The notes under the pieces are model-generated. The model worked only from the letters and a program-made list of their open reading frames with translations, ran no database searches and had not been told where the DNA came from. From Minisyncoccota bacterium (GTDB lineage Bacteria > Patescibacteriota > Minisyncoccia > Phycocordibacterales > JABMNX01), in NCBI GenBank assembly GCA_965222715.1, contig OZ244961.1, positions 140,609-204,608 of the forward strand: a stretch of DNA of 64,000 nt, read 5' to 3'. The stretch's first letter is position 1, and the number at the start of each line of letters is the position of its first letter. The position numbers and the translations under genes are program-made. Shown piece after piece: positions 45,899 to 59,039 of the stretch.

Positions 45899-47206
45899 AT
45901 GAAAGGACTGAGTATATTTCAAATTGTTGTTATCGGGGCGTTTGTATTCTTTACTGTTGTTGGGGTACTTATTTTTGCTGGTGTTGGTGGGTTAGGTGGA
46001 GACAGTCGTTCTGTTGGAGAAGTAGAGATTTGGGGAACGTACGACGAGCAAGTGTTGACGAGTTTACTCCGCAGTCGATCATTTGATGATCCACGTTTTG
46101 AAGAGGTGACCTACGTTGAGAAGGACCCTCGTTTTTTTACTGAAGAACTTATTGAAGCTCTCGCCTCAGGTAGTGGACCTGATTTGTTTTTCTTAGAACA
46201 GGACTCAATTCTACGCTTTATAGATAAGGTTCAGCCGATTCCATACGAAACATTTTCTCAAAGAGAATTTAGAGACACGTTTATAGAAGAAGGAGAACTC
46301 TTCTTAACAGAAGCTGGTATTGTCGCTCTTCCATTTATGGTTGACCCAATGGTCTTGTACTGGAACCGTGATCACTACACTCGCGGAGGAGTCGTGCGTC
46401 CTCCACAATTTTGGGATGAGCTACAGACACTTGCCCTCAATAGTTCACTCACACGACGAGGAGAGTCTGGGGCAATTCTTCAAAGTGCATTTGCAATTGG
46501 TGAGTATAGTAATATAAACCATGCAAAAGAACTACTCTCACTTCTTATGCTTCAAGCGGGGACTTCAATTACCGCATATACTGAAAGTGGTGAACTTATA
46601 CCAACACTCTTGGTGCGTCTACAGAATGGTCAAATTCCTTCTGAAAATGCACTTCGTTTCTACACTGACTTTGCGAATCCAACAAAGTCTGTCTATACCT
46701 GGAACCGCGCGCTTGATGAGGCGCAAGAAGAATTTGTAGCGGGGACACTTTCAAACTACATTGGTTTTGCGAGTGAGCTGCCTGATATTAGACGACAGAA
46801 CTCAAATTTGAATTTTGATGTTGCTATGGTGCCTCAGGTGCGCACCGGCACTCGAAGTGTTACGTTCGGCACGGTAACTGGTCTTGCTATCCCACGAGCT
46901 TCAGACAATATAAACGGTGCTGCGCAAATTGCGTTTGCGTTAACGTCAGACGATCTCCTTAGTGAAGTGAGTGACGTAACGGGGCTTCCACCTGTTTCTC
47001 GATCATTACTGAGTGATACACCAAGTGATCCATTTAAAGTTATCTTTAGAGATGCAGCATTACGTGCAGATGCGTGGCTTGAACCGAATAATACTGAAAC
47101 AGAACGCATATTTAAACAAATGATCGAATCGGTTGTTTCAGGTCGTGCACGCGTGAGTCAAGCTGTGGAAGTTGCCCAACAAGAACTCAGAAGTTTGTTA
47201 GAATAA
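45899..47206 (+). CDS. extracellular solute-binding protein (ABC transporter SBP family 1-like)
   Basis: 435 aa, N-terminal TM anchor, sugar-SBP-like length; weak. Confidence 0.5.
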   Translation: MKGLSIFQIVVIGAFVFFTVVGVLIFAGVGGLGGDSRSVGEVEIWGTYDEQVLTSLLRSRSFDDPRFEEVTYVEKDPRFFTEELIEALASGSGPDLFFLEQDSILRFIDKVQPIPYETFSQREFRDTFIEEGELFLTEAGIVALPFMVDPMVLYWNRDHYTRGGVVRPPQFWDELQTLALNSSLTRRGESGAILQSAFAIGEYSNINHAKELLSLLMLQAGTSITAYTESGELIPTLLVRLQNGQIPSENALRFYTDFANPTKSVYTWNRALDEAQEEFVAGTLSNYIGFASELPDIRRQNSNLNFDVAMVPQVRTGTRSVTFGTVTGLAIPRASDNINGAAQIAFALTSDDLLSEVSDVTGLPPVSRSLLSDTPSDPFKVIFRDAALRADAWLEPNNTETERIFKQMIESVVSGRARVSQAVEVAQQELRSLLE

Positions 47207-47225
47207 GTATATTACGTCACATACT

Positions 47226-47597
47226 ATGTTCACTAAATATCTTTACCTGTTTGTTGCAGTTACCACACTCTTTTTCTTAAGTGATATTCCGCATGCTTTT
47301 GCGCAGTCGGGTGGTTGTGACTCTGGCACTGGGTTACGTAACCCTCTTAATAATATTTGTAGCTTTGAAGATTTTGTTGAACTTCTGCTTGAGGCAGTAG
47401 TGCGCATCGGACTTCCAATTGCAGTGCTCTTTATTGTGTACTCTGGATTTCTCTTTGCAACAGCTCAGGGTAATGAAGAAAAAATCAAAAAAGCAAAACA
47501 AGCGTTTTTCTACACAGTTATTGGTATTACCATCTTCCTTGGGGCATGGGCGCTTGCGGTCATTATTGGAAACACCATACAGCTCCTTGCTGGATAG
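47226..47597 (+). CDS. TrbC/VirB2-like pilin-type small membrane protein (paralog 1)
   Basis: 123 aa: signal peptide, Cys pair, TM1-charged loop (QGNEEKIKKAK)-TM2 topology. Confidence 0.5.
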   Translation: MFTKYLYLFVAVTTLFFLSDIPHAFAQSGGCDSGTGLRNPLNNICSFEDFVELLLEAVVRIGLPIAVLFIVYSGFLFATAQGNEEKIKKAKQAFFYTVIGITIFLGAWALAVIIGNTIQLLAG

Positions 47598-47601
47598 TAG
47601 T

Positions 47602-47904
47602 ATGAAAAGAACATTTCTTCTTAGCACAACATTGTTTCTCACCCCATTTCTTGCACTTGCTGCCCCAAGTAATTTTCCTGAACTTGTTGGTCTCTTTATT
47701 TTCTATATTAATCTTATTATCCCACTAATAATTGCACTTGCAGTTCTCGGTTTCTTTTGGGGTGTTGCGCAATATATACTTGCATCGAAAGATACCTCAA
47801 AGATACAAGACGCCCGAAAAATGATCCTCTGGAGCCTGATTGCAATCTTTGTTATGACATCAGTGTGGGGAATACTACGGGTGCTTGCTAATACATTTCT
47901 ATAG
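47602..47904 (+). CDS. TrbC/VirB2-like pilin-type small membrane protein (paralog 2)
   Basis: 100 aa from ATG 47602: signal peptide, FFWGVAQYILASKD...WSLIAIFVMTSVWG two-helix core. Confidence 0.5.
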   Translation: MKRTFLLSTTLFLTPFLALAAPSNFPELVGLFIFYINLIIPLIIALAVLGFFWGVAQYILASKDTSKIQDARKMILWSLIAIFVMTSVWGILRVLANTFL

Positions 47905-48020
47905 ACTACTAGTGTATATGTAATCCACAGCAGTTCATTGCCTAGCATCTTATAACCCAGCTATGATACTATAAAGTGTACAGGTTATTTATTAGCACTT
48001 AATAATACGTAATTATTACA

Positions 48021-48371
48021 ATGAAAAAGTTTTTAATACTTCCAGGATTCCTTGCAGGTCTTCTTGTTGCTCCACTTGCAGTACAGGCACAAGGTGATCT
48101 CCAGGGTGTCATCACTGTCTTTTCAGACCTTATCAACCTCGCTATTCCTCTAGTGCTTGCACTTGCAGTACTCTACTTCTTCTGGGGACTCGCAATGTTT
48201 GTGCTTGCTCAAGGAAATGAAGACAAGCGTAAGGAAGGACGAGATATCATGATTTACGGTATCATTGCTCTCTTTGTGATGGTGTCCGTCTGGGGTCTTA
48301 TCGGAATCTTACAAGATACATTTGGTGTAGATAACACTAACCCAATTGTCCCTGAAGAGATTCGAAGGTAG
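48021..48371 (+). CDS. TrbC/VirB2-like pilin-type small membrane protein (paralog 3)
   Basis: 116 aa: signal peptide ending AQA, LYFFWGLAMFVLAQGNEDKRKEGRD...VMVSVWG core. Confidence 0.5.
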   Translation: MKKFLILPGFLAGLLVAPLAVQAQGDLQGVITVFSDLINLAIPLVLALAVLYFFWGLAMFVLAQGNEDKRKEGRDIMIYGIIALFVMVSVWGLIGILQDTFGVDNTNPIVPEEIRR

Positions 48372-48405
48372 GGTGTCTCTCAAGGTTCTCTAACGTATTT
48401 TCTTT

Positions 48406-48648
48406 ATGTCAGTTGATGACTTAGTGAGTCGCATCTCACAGTACATTATCGATCCAATCATTCTGCTCTTGTTCGCGCTTGGGTTGTTGTACTTCCTCTG
48501 GGGTGTTGCCATATTTATATGGCAGTCTGATAGTGAAGATGCTCGGAAGAAGGGTGTACAACATATGCTTTGGGGAATCATTGGAATGTTTATTATGATT
48601 GCCGCACTCGGTATCATAAATCTCATTGAAGGAACCTTTGGTTTGTAA
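48406..48648 (+). CDS. TrbC/VirB2-like pilin-type small membrane protein (paralog 4, no signal peptide)
   Basis: 80 aa: LYFLWGVAIFIWQSDSEDARKKG...IMIAALG core. Confidence 0.45.
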   Translation: MSVDDLVSRISQYIIDPIILLLFALGLLYFLWGVAIFIWQSDSEDARKKGVQHMLWGIIGMFIMIAALGIINLIEGTFGL

Positions 48649-54252: not shown

Positions 54253-56964
54253 ATGACACCATTTAATAATTTCACAACCAAAGCAAAAGAAGCAGTGCGT
54301 AAGGCGCACGAGCTTGCTATTGAACGTGGAGAGAATCATATTAATCCACTTCACTTACTTGCTGCACTTGTCCTTCAAGAGGAGAGCATGGTGCTTTCAA
54401 TTCTTGAGCGAATGGATATTGATACTATTTTATTTACTGACACGCTCCTTGAATCAATTGAAGGCGGTGAAAGTGGTGAGACCATTTCACCATCACACCA
54501 ACTCTATCTAACACCTGAACTTGCACAAGTACTTGAAGGTGCAACAAAGGTTGCTGAGAATTTCAATGATACTCGTGTCTCCACAGAACACCTTTTTATT
54601 TCAATTGTTGATACGCCTGGGCCGGCGGCGCAAGTACTTGCACAATTTCAAATCAATCGAAATGCAGTATTAAATGTATTTAATGAGCTCCGTGATAGCG
54701 ATGATCCCGATGTATTACAACCAAAACAAAATCGTGCTCTTGGTCGCTACACCAGAAGTCTCACAAAACTTGCAGCGGAAAATAAACTTGATCCTGTTAT
54801 TGGGCGCGATAGTGAGATCACTCGCGTGATTCAAATTCTTTCACGTCGTACAAAAAATAACCCAATTCTTATTGGTGAAGCGGGTGTAGGAAAAACTGCT
54901 ATTGCAGAAGGTCTTGCGGCGCGTATGGCAAGTGGTGATATTCCTGATTCTTTAAAAGATAAAGAATTGGTTACCCTTGATTTAGGAATGCTTATTGCAG
55001 GCACAAAGTATCGTGGAGAGTTTGAAGAGCGATTGAAGTCAATTATGAAAGAAGTAGAGCGAGCCGAAGGGAAAGTCATTCTTTTTATTGACGAATTACA
55101 TACGCTTGTAGGTGCTGGTGCGGCAGAAGGGGCAATGGATGCATCAAACATGTTAAAACCTGCCCTTGCGCGGGGTGAGTTGCGTGTGATTGGCGCAACC
55201 ACATTAAAAGAATATCAAAAATATATTGAGCGAGACGCCGCGCTCACTCGTCGGTTCCAACCAGTGCATGTATCTGAGCCATCCATTGAAGATGCTGTCG
55301 CTATTTTACGTGGTTTAAAGGAAAAGTATGAACTTTTTCATGGTGTGCGTATTACTGATGACGCCATTATTGCGGCAGTGACACTAAGCACACGATATAT
55401 TTCTGATCGTTTCTTACCAGATAAAGCGGTTGATCTTATTGATGAAGCAGCGTCTTCGCTCCGCATTTCACTTGAAAATAAACCGCCAGTCCTTGAAGAA
55501 ACACACCGAAAGGTGATGCGTCTTGAAATTGAAAAAGAGGCGCTTCGCAAGGAAGCTGAAGCGGGCGAGAAGAAAGCAAAAGATCGTATAAAGAAAATTG
55601 AAAAAGAGATATCTGATCTTAAAGAGAAGACTTCTGAGCTTGAATTAAAGTGGACAAATGAAAAAGAAGTACTTGGAGAAATTAAAGTACTCAAAAAGAG
55701 TTTAGAAGAGCTGCGCATTGAAGCAGAAGCAGCTGAAGCAACAGCTGATCTTTCTCGTGCTGCTGAGATTCGCTATGGGAAAATTCCTCAACAGGAGAAA
55801 GAGCTTGAATCAAAAATGAAGAAGCTGAAGAAGTTACAGAGCTCACGTCGAATTCTTAAAGAAGAGATTACTGAGAGTGATATTGCAGAAGTGGTCTCGC
55901 GTTGGACGAATATTCCTGTTGCACGAATGCTTGAGGAAGAAGCTGAGAAGTTGGCACGTATGGAAGAGGAACTCAAAGAGCGTATTGTTGGTCAAGATGA
56001 GGCGGTGAAGCTTATTTCTGACGCGGTGAAGCGCTCACGTGCTGGTATTTCTGACCCACATCGCCCAATTGGCTCATTTGTATTCCTTGGGCCAACAGGA
56101 GTTGGTAAGACAGAGTTAACCAAAGCTCTCACTGAGTTTCTCTTTGATGATGAATCAGCTCTCATTAGGGTTGATATGTCTGAGTATATGGAGAAGCACT
56201 CGGTATCTAAAATGATTGGCTCACCTCCAGGGTACGTTGGTCACGAAGAGGGTGGTGCACTCACTGAATTGGTTCGACACCGACCATACTCAGTACTCCT
56301 TTTTGATGAAATTGAAAAAGCACATCCTGAAGTCTTTAATATCTTACTTCAAGTGCTTGATAATGGTCACTTGACTGATGCAAAGGGACGAAAGGTAAAC
56401 TTTAAAAACACGGTGATTATCCTCACATCTAACATTGGCGCTGAGTACATTGACCGTATGACCAAGTTTGGTTTCTCAAACTCTGAAGATTCTGAGGCAA
56501 CACAGTACGAAGAGACAAAAGAGAAAGTACTTCGTGCTCTCCGAGATAACTTCCGACCAGAATTTATTAACCGACTTGATGAAATTGTTATCTTTGACAT
56601 TCTCTCGCCTGAAGCAATTAAAGATATTGTGGGTATTCAAATTGATATTGTGAAAGAGCGACTCTTGCGCAAGGAAATCAAGCTTACTGTATCAAGTGAT
56701 GTGCTCTCATACCTTGCTAAAGAAGGGTATAACCCACAATATGGTGCACGTCCACTGAAGCGGCTTATTCAGTCAAAAATTCTTACACCAATTGCCAATA
56801 TAATGGTCTCGCAAGGAATTATGGAGGGTGGTTCAGTCTCAGTTGATATAAAGAAAGGTGGGGAAGAAGGAGAATTTGATTTTACTGTCAAGAAAAAGCG
56901 AGCACGTACAACTCGGAAAGCGCAACCAACTAGAGTAAAAAGAAAAGCAGTTGCGTCTAAGTAA
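54253..56964 (+). CDS. clpB: ATP-dependent chaperone ClpB
   Basis: 903 aa, Clp-N, two AAA+ modules ([16 protein letters not shown]), long coiled-coil middle domain. Confidence 0.9.
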
Positions 56965-57018: not shown

Positions 57019-57130
57019 TTTATAGCTTATTGGTGGGGGATTTGGCGCCAGTTCTAAACTCACTCTGTTCGTTAAGAACTCGCTGCCCCGTCGTTCAAAT
57101 CACTCTCGGTAGGAAATTTATGATTCCCTA

Positions 57131-57228
57131 GGCGTCAGCTCACTAACCTCAAAATAGTTTTGTTAACAAAACTATTTTGAGGAAGTGGCTCCTGCCCGAG
57201 CTCGCCGTCGTTCGTTCCTCACGACATG
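57131..57228 (-). repeat. tRNA 3'-flank structured element, copy D (degenerate, 3' of tRNA-Tyr)
   Basis: minus-strand GGAACGAACGACGGCGAGCTCGGGCAGGAGCCACTTCCTCAAAATAGTTTTGTTAACAAAACTATTTTGAGGTTAGTGAGCTGACGCC; nearly identical to copy C in the hairpin region. Confidence 0.6.
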
Positions 57229-57285
57229 GCTCCGCTTCACAAAACGCAGAAAACCAGACGCAGGTCTGGTTTTCTTGCAGTTTTG

Positions 57286-57369
57286 TGCGCCGGGAGGGAT
57301 TTGAACCCCCGTAGGACTAAGTCCGTCAGATTTACAGTCTGATGCAATTGACCACTCTGCCACCGACGC
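57286..57369 (-). tRNA. tRNA-Tyr (anticodon GTA)
   Basis: cloverleaf by eye, long variable arm, A73; anticodon loop CTGTAAA. Confidence 0.85.
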
Positions 57370-57394: not shown

Positions 57395-57467
57395 GGACGT
57401 TACGGACACGTCCGTCAGATTCTTAACATTATTGGTCTGAAGCAACTAACCACTCTGCCACCGACGC
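57395..57467 (-). pseudogene. decayed partial duplicate of tRNA-Tyr (acceptor 5', D-arm, anticodon arm with 15-nt loop, no T-arm)
   Basis: TGCGTCGGTGGCAGAGTGG identical to the tRNA-Tyr 5' end, then diverged TTCAGAC-15nt-TCTGACGGAC. Confidence 0.6.
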
Positions 57468-57577
57468 AATGTGGCCTATTTTAGCCTGTTTGTCCTGTTT
57501 TCTCAACCCTTCTGTAACAAGATTTATACAACTATACAACTTGTATCATTGTTTTCATCAAGCTACTATTAGGTGTA

Positions 57578-58411
57578 ATGAAATACGTACTTGCACTTGC
57601 TGTTCTATTTGTACTCATTGGGGGTACTTTTTTGCTATTGCCGGATGCGACTTTTGCACAATTCGATAACCCATCCCAAGGTACTGCAGTCCCTGGGGGC
57701 AATACTTCTTCTGGTTTAACGGAGAGAGTGGGGGGTGGAGGACTAGTGCCATGTGGAGGTCCAGGGCAAGACGCGTGTACCACATGTCACGCACTTCAAC
57801 TTGCACAAAATGTTGTTGAGTTCATTGTGCAAGTCTCATTTGTGATTGCTGCACTTCTGTTTGCCTACGCAGGCTTTCTCTTCTTTACTTCCTCTGCAGT
57901 TGACTCCATTTCAACAGCAAAAAATATTTTTACCAATACCGTTGTTGGTATCATCATCATTCTTACTGCTTGGCTCTTAGTAAATGTACTTCTTCATACA
58001 CTTACCGGTAAAGGAGTTAACCCTTTCACTGAATTGTTGTGTGACATAACTGAGCAACCCATACGAAACAATGCAACGAACAATTCAATAAACACTACCG
58101 GGGGCACAGCTAGTGGTGTGAGTACGGAAGGTGTTTCAGAAAATGATTCAGAGATAGATCCACTTCAAGATGCGCGAGATCGTGCAGCAGAAATACAGGC
58201 TGAACGTGATCGACAACTAGAAGAAGAGCGTCAGGCAGCAGTTGAAGCGGGGGGAGACCCTGACGAAGTGCCGTTGGTCAATAAATGGTTTTTTAGAACA
58301 CAGACAGGTCCACAAGGAGAAGAGGTGGGGCCTTTTGATTCGCAACCAGAATGTGTAAGTCGTGCAATTGCTTCAGGGGTAAATCCATTTTGTTACGCAA
58401 AATCAATCTAG
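57578..58411 (+). CDS. TrbC/VirB2-like pilin-type membrane protein (paralog 5) with 130-aa C-terminal Asn/Thr- and acidic-rich extension
   Basis: 277 aa: signal peptide, Cys-rich segment (CGGPGQDACTTCH), two-helix core collinear with 47226-47597. Confidence 0.45.
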   Translation: MKYVLALAVLFVLIGGTFLLLPDATFAQFDNPSQGTAVPGGNTSSGLTERVGGGGLVPCGGPGQDACTTCHALQLAQNVVEFIVQVSFVIAALLFAYAGFLFFTSSAVDSISTAKNIFTNTVVGIIIILTAWLLVNVLLHTLTGKGVNPFTELLCDITEQPIRNNATNNSINTTGGTASGVSTEGVSENDSEIDPLQDARDRAAEIQAERDRQLEEERQAAVEAGGDPDEVPLVNKWFFRTQTGPQGEEVGPFDSQPECVSRAIASGVNPFCYAKSI

Positions 58412-58461
58412 TTTGACTCGGTAGTACCTATCATGTATAGTGGTCAAGCAATTTTCTATAT

Positions 58462-58620
58462 ATGTCACAAGATAGATTAATAAAACTCGCGTGCCAGGAA
58501 TGTAAGCGTATTAACTACTGGTCAAGCAAAAATAAGAAGCTTGTTGAGCGAAAGATTGAGCTCAAGAAGTACTGTAAATGGTGCAAGAAGCAGACAGCAC
58601 ATAAGGAGATGAAGAAATAA
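58462..58620 (+). CDS. rpmG: 50S ribosomal protein L33
   Basis: 52 aa, CxxC...CxxC zinc ribbon (CQECKRINYW...YCKWCKK); classic rpmG-tRNA-Trp linkage. Confidence 0.8.
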   Translation: MSQDRLIKLACQECKRINYWSSKNKKLVERKIELKKYCKWCKKQTAHKEMKK

Positions 58621-58701: not shown

Positions 58702-58772
58702 GGGCCTATAGTTCAGTGGTAGAATAACGGTCTCCAAAACCGTCGACCGAGGTTCGAGTCCTCGTGGGCCCG
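58702..58772 (+). tRNA. tRNA-Trp (anticodon CCA)
   Basis: cloverleaf by eye, G73; anticodon loop CTCCAAA. Confidence 0.85.
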
Positions 58773-58835
58773 CAATGATACAAAACAATAGCGTTTAGCT
58801 ATTATGTTGTAACTATCATTTCGAGGATTCAAGTG

Positions 58836-58952
58836 GACTCGAAAGACGGAGCCGAAGGCGAGTCCGGGCAGGAGCCACTTCCTCAAAATATTTTATGTTA
58901 ACAAAAGTATTTTGAGGTTAGTGAGCTGACGCCGAGTCCTCGTGGGCCCGCA
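58836..58952 (+). repeat. tRNA 3'-flank structured element, copy C (21-nt repeat of the tRNA-Trp 3' end)
   Basis: GGACTCGAAAGACGGAGCCGAAGGCGAGTCCGGGCAGGAGCCACTT-hairpin(CCTCAAAATA...TATTTTGAGG)-TTAGTGAGCTGACGCCGAGTCCTCGTGGGCCCGCAA. Confidence 0.7.
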
Positions 58953-59039
58953 AAACATTTTTCATACACCTTAGAATCCACCCCTCTTACTATTTCGTCA
59001 TATGAAGAAATAGTAAGATAGTGTGTTACGTAGAATCTG

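Follow-up and report, generated by a model that had tools for sequence, protein, structure and literature searches.

Why should a patescibacterial genome keep a single, unusually long pilin-like gene among its housekeeping genes? The question is raised by an open reading frame (ORF) at positions 57578..58411 (+) of a 64,000-nucleotide (nt) stretch of contig OZ244961.1, hereafter the window, from an ultra-small, Paceibacteria-type bacterium of the candidate phyla radiation (CPR)/Patescibacteria. According to the ORF list it starts with ATG and encodes 277 amino acids (aa) followed by a stop codon. The answer that we favor, and consider fairly probable, is that the product is a modular, surface-displayed pilin-domain protein whose C-terminal head is non-enzymatic and probably serves in binding.

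Family membership of the 277-aa protein

Pfam already has a family for this gene, whose annotation would be 'pilin'. PF18895 (T4SS_pilin; T4SS, type IV secretion system) matches aa 74-138 over profile positions 7-71 of 71 with 30.4 bits, against a gathering cut-off of 26.6 bits; Pfam gave no match to PF04956 (TrbC/VirB2) at E≤1. When a profile of the core was compared with all six-frame ORFs of the window, exactly five matched, namely this gene and the four genes of an array at 47226..48648. A first-pass annotation of the window had called the gene a fifth VirB2-like paralog, and this holds; the peptides quoted there (CGGPGQDACTTCH, NATNNSINTTGG and EERQAAVEAGGDPDE) are all located in the 277-aa product. 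In the pairwise comparison with the product of 47226-47597, named beforehand as the test that could refute the relationship, BLASTP found a significant similarity (74 aa aligned, 35% identity, E=1e-9). The two proteins had also been described as collinear in their N-terminal parts, which is correct for the pilin core and incorrect for the Cys motif: the array protein carries two Cys ahead of helix 1 and lacks one behind helix 2, whereas the 277-aa protein has three and one in these positions. Members of PF18895 are typically about 80-160 aa long and encoded in tandem arrays. The gene shares neither trait, being solitary, 9 kb away from the four-gene array and the only one of the five in the window that encodes a long member. 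A GGTG Shine-Dalgarno-like motif lies 3 nt 5' of its ATG; no consensus sigma-70-type promoter was found on the + strand from the tRNA-Tyr gene upstream to the start codon.

Architecture of the 277-aa protein

The full-length AlphaFold2 model (38 sequences in the alignment, mean predicted local distance difference test (pLDDT) score of 71), hydropathy and family alignments divide the protein into the following segments:

57578..57658, +, signal peptide, aa 1-27 (hydrophobic core aa 3-21 by hydropathy; AlphaFold2 helix aa 2-19)
57659..57736, +, lineage-specific insertion of ~25 aa (FDNPSQGTAVPGGNTSSGLTERVGG), about aa 28-53 (predicted disordered; pLDDT<50 for aa 21-54)
57737..58051, +, conserved core, aa 54-158 (invariant or near-invariant columns; 61-65% identity to positional orthologs)
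58052..58156, +, flexible Asn/Thr/Ser/Gly-rich acidic linker, aa 159-193 (composition; pLDDT<50 for aa 166-190)
58157..58252, +, charged Glu/Arg/Gln/Ala-rich alpha-helix, aa 194-225 (AlphaFold2 helix 195-223, block pLDDT 92-94)
58253..58408, +, two-Cys mini-domain, aa 226-277 (AlphaFold2: beta 235-240, beta 249-253, alpha 256-265, beta 272-276)

Hydropathy peaks at aa 1-24, 76-104 and 116-144 fit a signal peptide followed by two hydrophobic helices, which is the design of PF18895. Pro22 is near-invariant and a YAQ motif is conserved at the signal peptide in the family alignments, and cleavage would take place after T-F-A27 (family consensus [ST]-[YF]-A, cut before Q). The ~25-aa insertion behind the signal peptide is missing from all 14 of the 14 closest homologs aligned. 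The core opens with the motif GLVPC59GGPGQDAC67TTC70 (aa 55-70; GLVPC59-x7-C67-x2-C70) and continues with a helical hairpin, modelled as helices 69-104 and 110-143 with a short loop between them (pLDDT ~80), behind which the segment aa 144-155 reads GKGVNPFTELLC155. In the family consensus the inter-helix loop carries Lys/Arg (TGGxDPGKxxxA[RK]KIF), the segments preceding helix 1 and trailing helix 2 are neutral to acidic, and all six Cys (6/6) of the 277-aa protein fall in predicted outer segments or the head. The proposal of the first-pass annotation that the extension is displayed outside the cell is therefore in agreement with the signal peptide, the two-helix hairpin, the positively charged family loop and the predicted external position of every Cys.

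The distribution of the cysteines points to two disulfide bonds in the outer part of the core. Cys59 is nearly invariant, being present in 147 of 150 family representatives, and Cys67 is present in 148. Cys70 covaries with a Cys located 12-30 residues past the conserved helix-2 Trp (both in 132 representatives, neither in 10, discordant in 0), and the array paralog encoded at 47226-47597 follows the same rule, having neither. Because this covariation is perfect, we propose a Cys70-Cys155 disulfide that would staple both outer ends of the hairpin; Cys59 and Cys67 would close a second disulfide loop.

The C-terminal tail had been described in the first-pass annotation as a low-complexity, Asn/Thr-rich and acidic stretch of 130 aa. 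The acidic character is real, with 24 D+E versus 10 K+R in aa 151-277, whereas Asn and Thr account for 13% of these residues and are concentrated in aa 163-185. The low-complexity description is contradicted, since only ~35 of the 127 residues are disordered and the remainder consists of a helix with pLDDT>90 and a mini-domain that recurs in relatives. According to the model, the tail is thus a linker, a stalk and a head. The charged helix is probably a rigid single-helix stalk of ~4.5 nm; it is missing from P0002 and P0013, two homologs that carry the mini-domain.

The mini-domain (~45 aa) holds Cys259 and Cys272 in the motif W-F-F ... G-P-F-D-S-x3-C ... C-Y. Its pLDDT is 78-90 within the full-length model, and modelling it alone with six relatives gave the same topology at a mean of 84.8. 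The predicted fold is a simple beta-beta-alpha-beta unit with one probable disulfide. A profile built from seven copies matches P0002, P0006 (twice), P0009, P0013 and P0065, as well as an eighth, non-seed copy in P0167 (the L017 protein), and it matches weakly inside the 606-aa protein P0036. No Pfam family covers the mini-domain or the tail, and a word-indexed search of a large protein database with the seven-sequence alignment returned no match even at E≤10. The nearest resemblance is to the GYF domain: Pfam GYF reaches E=0.054 and 13.6 bits (cut-off 25.7) over profile positions 1-17 only and in two of the seven members, and the GYF structures 4bws and 1gyf take the top Foldseek ranks in two runs, weakly (E=1.2-3.7, TM-score 0.35-0.44). 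The second half of the GYF signature W-x-Y ... G-P-F ... G-Y-F is missing from the mini-domain. Comparison of the profile with PDB sequences yielded weak matches only, to repeat proteins and to the N-terminal domain of yeast RNase H1 (1qhk_A, E=0.19 over 23 positions), and no Pfam match to RNase H1 N-terminal or Cauli_VI was reported for the mini-domain. Among BFVD structures only uncharacterized phage proteins were retrieved (E≥0.27). All of these resemblances serve as leads and assign the mini-domain to no known fold family. The head shows no enzymatic signature, and nucleic-acid binding by the tail is disfavored because the tail is acidic.

The long subfamily with a conserved Cys motif

An indexed search of 5.8 billion proteins with the 277-aa protein retrieved 34 homologs, which come from Paceibacterota and Kaiserbacteria metagenome-assembled genomes and are unnamed or called 'pilin' or 'hypothetical'. 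Exhaustive phmmer analysis of 1.84 billion representatives (50% identity) returned 6354 clusters at E≤1e-3, of which 1147 pass E≤1e-10. The hallmark of the subfamily is a C-x(n)-C-x2-C motif ahead of helix 1 together with a Cys after helix 2. In 78% of the 153 closest members whose core could be located, the protein extends more than 60 aa past helix 2 (median 190 aa), and long N-terminal extensions also occur in 14%. Fusion of a pilin core to a tail is hence the normal state of this subfamily rather than an oddity.

A Pfam census of the 150 closest members found T4SS_pilin in 145, SLT in 15, SLT_3 in 5, CHAP in 3, Peptidase_S8 in 2, M15-type peptidases in 2-4 and PKD/fn3 in 1-2; PF04956 is matched by 13 of the 150. 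Most of the C-terminal extensions match no Pfam family, and the recognizable heads are mostly peptidoglycan hydrolases.

Conservation of the ClpB-rpmG slot and exchange of the head

The gene lies among the following neighbors:

54253..56964, +, clpB, upstream synteny anchor (ORF)
57285..57369, -, tRNA-Tyr(GTA), conserved upstream neighbor (ARAGORN; Rfam 60.1 bits)
58462..58620, +, rpmG, ribosomal protein L33, downstream neighbor (ORF and synteny)
58702..58773, +, tRNA-Trp(CCA), conserved downstream neighbor (ARAGORN; Rfam 69.2 bits)

The full order ClpB - tRNA-Tyr - pilin gene - rpmG - tRNA-Trp - miaA - ahpC - parB recurs in the relatives L001, L002, L004 and L007 and partially in L006 and L009, and the slot order is also found in nine loci of a species-representative genome collection (L011-L017, L019 and L021). 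Altogether it is kept wholly or partly in 15 other loci, and the gene should accordingly be regarded as a positional ortholog and a stable resident of the slot. The same conservation contradicts the idea that the gene originated by tRNA-associated rearrangement, which the first-pass annotation had implied by placing it in a region full of such events; small rearrangements around both tRNA genes are real, and they are not the source of the pilin gene. ClpB is encoded 5' of the orthologous pilin gene, at 68-85% identity, in L001, L002, L004, L007, L009, L011-L016 and L019.

What changes within this slot is the region behind the core. The identities between the window and its relatives are 80-83% for ClpB, 83-94% for L33 and 61-65% for the pilin core (over the conserved loci as a whole, ClpB comes to about 80-88%), whereas similarity in the post-core region is undetectable except in L007, where the mini-domain aligns over 37 aa at 43% identity (E=2e-5). 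Single mini-domain heads occupy the slot in the window, L007, L006 and the more distant L017, and a double one is present in L009. L001 and L004 carry a Cys-rich head of ~130 aa ('class B', 42% identical to each other), L002/L011 and L014 a head of ~190 aa ('class C'), and L021 a lysozyme-like head that aligns with the SLT_3-bearing protein P0017 and with P0022, including a C-x-x-A-E-S-G motif. Almost no head is left in L012 (162 aa) and L013 (169 aa). No Pfam family matches the isolated class B or class C head, and the latter has no match among PDB sequences either. The class C head (P0012, encoded at L002 8957-9943, and P0015 of L014) contains a C-H-x-x-G-x-C-x-D motif followed by an E-H motif; these are reminiscent of LAS/M15 zinc peptidases, an assignment that is unsupported by the Pfam and PDB searches and is not claimed here. 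Comparison of these loci suggests that the pilin gene is a stable slot resident with an exchangeable head.

The gene was also considered as a target of a diversity-generating retroelement, and this candidate was rejected: sensitive blastn of the gene against the window found no second copy longer than 50 nt, that is, no template repeat. Directly 5' of rpmG, a strong sigma-70-like promoter match (TTGACT-17-TATAGT, 10/12) is located at 58413-58441, two bases past the pilin stop codon.

The short pilin array and its context

The other PF18895 genes of the window form a single array:

47226..48648, +, four short PF18895 paralogs (47226-47597, ~47607-47904, 48021-48371 and 48406-48648)

All four match PF18895, three of them above 26.6 bits, while the ORF 47419-47904 scores 24.8 bits. 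The first paralog (47226-47597) also passes PF04956 TrbC/VirB2 with 30.0 bits against a cut-off of 27.9. The same array is present in the relative L001, and the four products are candidate partner subunits of the 277-aa protein. A 435-aa protein with an N-terminal membrane helix is encoded at 45899-47206 and ends 20 nt before the array; by eye it resembles extracellular solute-binding proteins, and no significant Pfam family was found for it. The remaining content of the window is housekeeping DNA of a small genome, including genes for GroEL, RNR, MurJ, LepA, ValRS, FtsZ/FtsA, GyrA, IF-2, ClpB, ParB and others. The 10-kb flanks of the syntenic relatives contain no T4SS genes.

VirB2-like pilin arrays are widespread in Patescibacteria (PMC12102498), and such an array is essential for the epibiotic growth of Southlakia epibionticum (PMC10633639; PMC12857230), the one species open to genetic manipulation, in which the T4SS-like system is essential as well. 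The function of this system has been described as completely unknown (PMC11665869, PMC10633639) and is given as unknown in PMC12857230 too.

Proposed role and alternative explanations

It is proposed that the 277-aa protein is exported by the Sec route and cleaved by signal peptidase, which would leave both hairpin ends pointing outward (N-out/C-out). The Cys59-Cys67 and Cys70-Cys155 bridges would then form, the latter stapling the hairpin ends in a manner functionally akin to the head-to-tail cyclization of T-pilin and RP4 TrbC. The linker and the ~4.5-nm helix would hold the mini-domain several nanometers off the membrane, and the mini-domain may either stay at the membrane or ride on a T4SS-type pilus in which the four short paralogs would be the main subunits. 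There it would act as a non-enzymatic binding head for contact with the surface of a host or partner cell, and replacement of the head between strains would alter what is displayed or recognized. In F- and T-pilin the termini are exposed on the outside of the pilus, and F-pilin can display additions at its C-terminus, which makes incorporation into a pilus conceivable; since the steric cost of a head on each subunit may be high, the protein is more plausibly a minor or terminal subunit.

Several observations weigh against this proposal. A VirB2-type helical filament may not accommodate subunits that all carry a head of ~120 aa, and when the family sequence profile was compared with PDB, spurious PsaF signal-peptide matches were the sole result and the solved VirB2 and TraA structures were not retrieved. 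The association between Cys70 and the post-helix-2 Cys (Fisher p=1.5e-15) was calculated without phylogenetic correction. The mini-domain is without a significant sequence or fold match in Pfam, PDB, Foldseek or BFVD, so its binding role is a guess from size and position. No gene for VirB4, VirB6 or another T4SS component was found among the ORFs scanned in the 64-kb window, and the unscanned ORFs are all too short for VirB4; with housekeeping neighbors and no T4SS gene in the window, any link of this locus to a secretion machine is putative.

Several of these features would also suit another explanation, possible and in our view somewhat unlikely, in which the hairpin is a membrane anchor only and the family tethers envelope-maintenance modules to the cell's own surface for growth and division, taking part neither in a pilus nor in host contact. 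The housekeeping neighborhood, the stable synteny, the adjacent rpmG and the lack of T4SS genes in the window are all consistent with it, and the heads that can be recognized are peptidoglycan enzymes, which any walled cell needs. However, heads are unrelated or lost between genomes whose ClpB is >80% identical, a pattern that a housekeeping function does not usually show and that typifies proteins facing a variable outside partner. The hairpin also shares homology with the pilins of a T4SS cluster in Saccharibacteria, where they are essential (PMC10633639). The first-pass annotation had instead likened the protein to an adhesin or decorated pilin variant, and the corresponding alternative is a decorated pilin whose acidic, low-complexity Asn/Thr-rich tail would be N-glycosylated and serve as a non-specific adhesin. 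An 'adhesin-like' role as such is plausible, and the glycosylation sequons that were to be checked are present: five N-x-S/T occur in the protein, four within aa 165-191 (at Asn165, 168, 172 and 189) and a fifth at aa 42, each of them in a segment predicted to be external and disordered. Sequons are nevertheless expected by chance in an Asn/Ser/Thr-rich stretch, low complexity is confined to ~35 residues of the 127-residue tail, the mini-domain relatives P0002 and P0013 do not share the sequon-rich stretch, and no glycosylation machinery was seen in the window, so we consider the decorated pilin improbable.

The least credible explanation, to which we give hardly any weight, has the gene arriving as cargo on a mobile element that targets tRNA genes, or arising recently through a fusion or frameshift artefact beside the rearranged tRNA-Tyr. 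The gene pair is indeed flanked by an 85-nt repeat and by tRNA-end duplications, the orientation of tRNA-Tyr varies among relatives, and a GIY-YIG gene lies by tRNA-Tyr in L009. Occupation of the same slot in 15 other loci largely refutes the mobile-cargo explanation, and L001 has the gene without the 85-nt element, its ClpB-to-gene gap being 240 nt with nothing but the tRNA in it. An artefact is at odds with the single-ORF architecture common to the homologs and with the confidently folded tail.

Comparison with known systems and significance

The closest described system is the six-pilin essential array in the T4SS cluster of Ca. Southlakia epibionticum ML1, which shares the Pfam family, the signal peptide and hairpin, and the phylum (PMC10633639; PMC12102498). 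Described patescibacterial pilins are short, tandem and usually encoded near virB4, whereas the 277-aa gene is solitary, occupies a housekeeping slot and encodes a protein with a putative Cys staple, a stalk and a head. Text searches of PMC12102498, PMC10633639, PMC12857230 and PMC11665869 retrieved no account of C-terminal pilin fusions. The VirB2 T-pilin of A. tumefaciens, TrbC of RP4 and TraA of F (PF04956) likewise combine a signal peptide with a helical hairpin whose termini both face the outer side. Compared with these, the 277-aa protein lacks a PF04956 match, would have a disulfide staple instead of cyclization, belongs to a monoderm host and is ~3x larger in its mature form because of the head. 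Modular type IV pilins, such as PilB and PilC of Streptococcus sanguinis, consist of a pilin module onto which a functional module is grafted. They follow the same principle of an anchor with an exchangeable head, although fold and machinery are unrelated and the analogy is functional only. The activities of VirB1-type lytic transglycosylases are paralleled by the SLT, SLT_3, CHAP and M15 heads of other subfamily members, and a displayed binding head would parallel the VirB5 tip adhesins; VirB1 and VirB5 are canonically separate soluble proteins rather than pilin fusions, and the head encoded in the window has no enzymatic signature.

The Cys-stapled long subfamily, the use of the hairpin as a carrier of exchangeable heads and the head-variable ClpB-rpmG site appear to be undescribed in the literature searched. 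How Patescibacteria attach to and exploit their hosts is an open problem. Our analysis indicates that part of this pilin family is made up not of simple filament subunits but of proteins that carry exchangeable extracellular modules, among which cell-wall hydrolases are frequent, and the locus yields testable candidates for determinants of host specificity or wall breaching. It also yields a structural prediction, namely a disulfide staple in place of pilin cyclization. The gain from the 277-aa gene itself is modest, as its head is small, non-enzymatic and without a known ligand. A broader and more speculative idea, which we hold to be unlikely as it stands, is that VirB2-like hairpins are a general patescibacterial display platform, a stapled module with exchangeable heads, and that the ClpB-rpmG slot encodes a strain-specific determinant of host contact or wall breaching swapped by recombination between the core and rpmG. 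If so, the head encoded in the window would be the recognition module for the partner cell of this strain.

tRNA genes and flanking repeats

The 'pseudo-tRNA-Tyr' mentioned in the first-pass annotation does not correspond to the neighboring tRNA-Tyr gene, which is intact; partial duplicates were probably meant. Upstream of the pilin gene, at 57435-57468, the 5' half of tRNA-Tyr recurs as a direct duplicate of 34 nt (91%), and the T-arm/acceptor end of this tRNA recurs inverted over 17 nt (88%) at 57093-57109, 180 nt away. An element of ~85 nt is found 3' of both tRNA-Tyr (57128-57212, - sense) and tRNA-Trp (58850-58936, +), with an orientation to its tRNA that is the same in both cases. The element has two copies only in the window and contains a perfect 18+18-nt palindrome (CCTCAAAATAGTTTTGTT/AACAAAACTATTTTGAGG) at 57147-57182. 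No Rfam family was found for the tRNA-flanking repeats; the element looks like a small insertion targeting tRNA 3' ends. The final 21 nt of tRNA-Trp occur again as an exact copy 178 nt further downstream (58755-58775 and 58933-58953), bracketing the 85-nt element in the manner of a target-site or att-like duplication.

Between ClpB and the pilin gene, tRNA-Tyr lies on the - strand in some relatives and on the + strand in others (L001, L002, L007, L011 and L012 compared with L004, L009, L013-L016 and L019), while the flanking order is identical; a segment holding only tRNA-Tyr has thus been inverted recurrently. In L009 a small GIY-YIG (T5orf172-like) endonuclease gene (1364-1609) is inserted between ClpB and tRNA-Tyr, and an HNH_3 gene lies near the tRNA cluster in L004.

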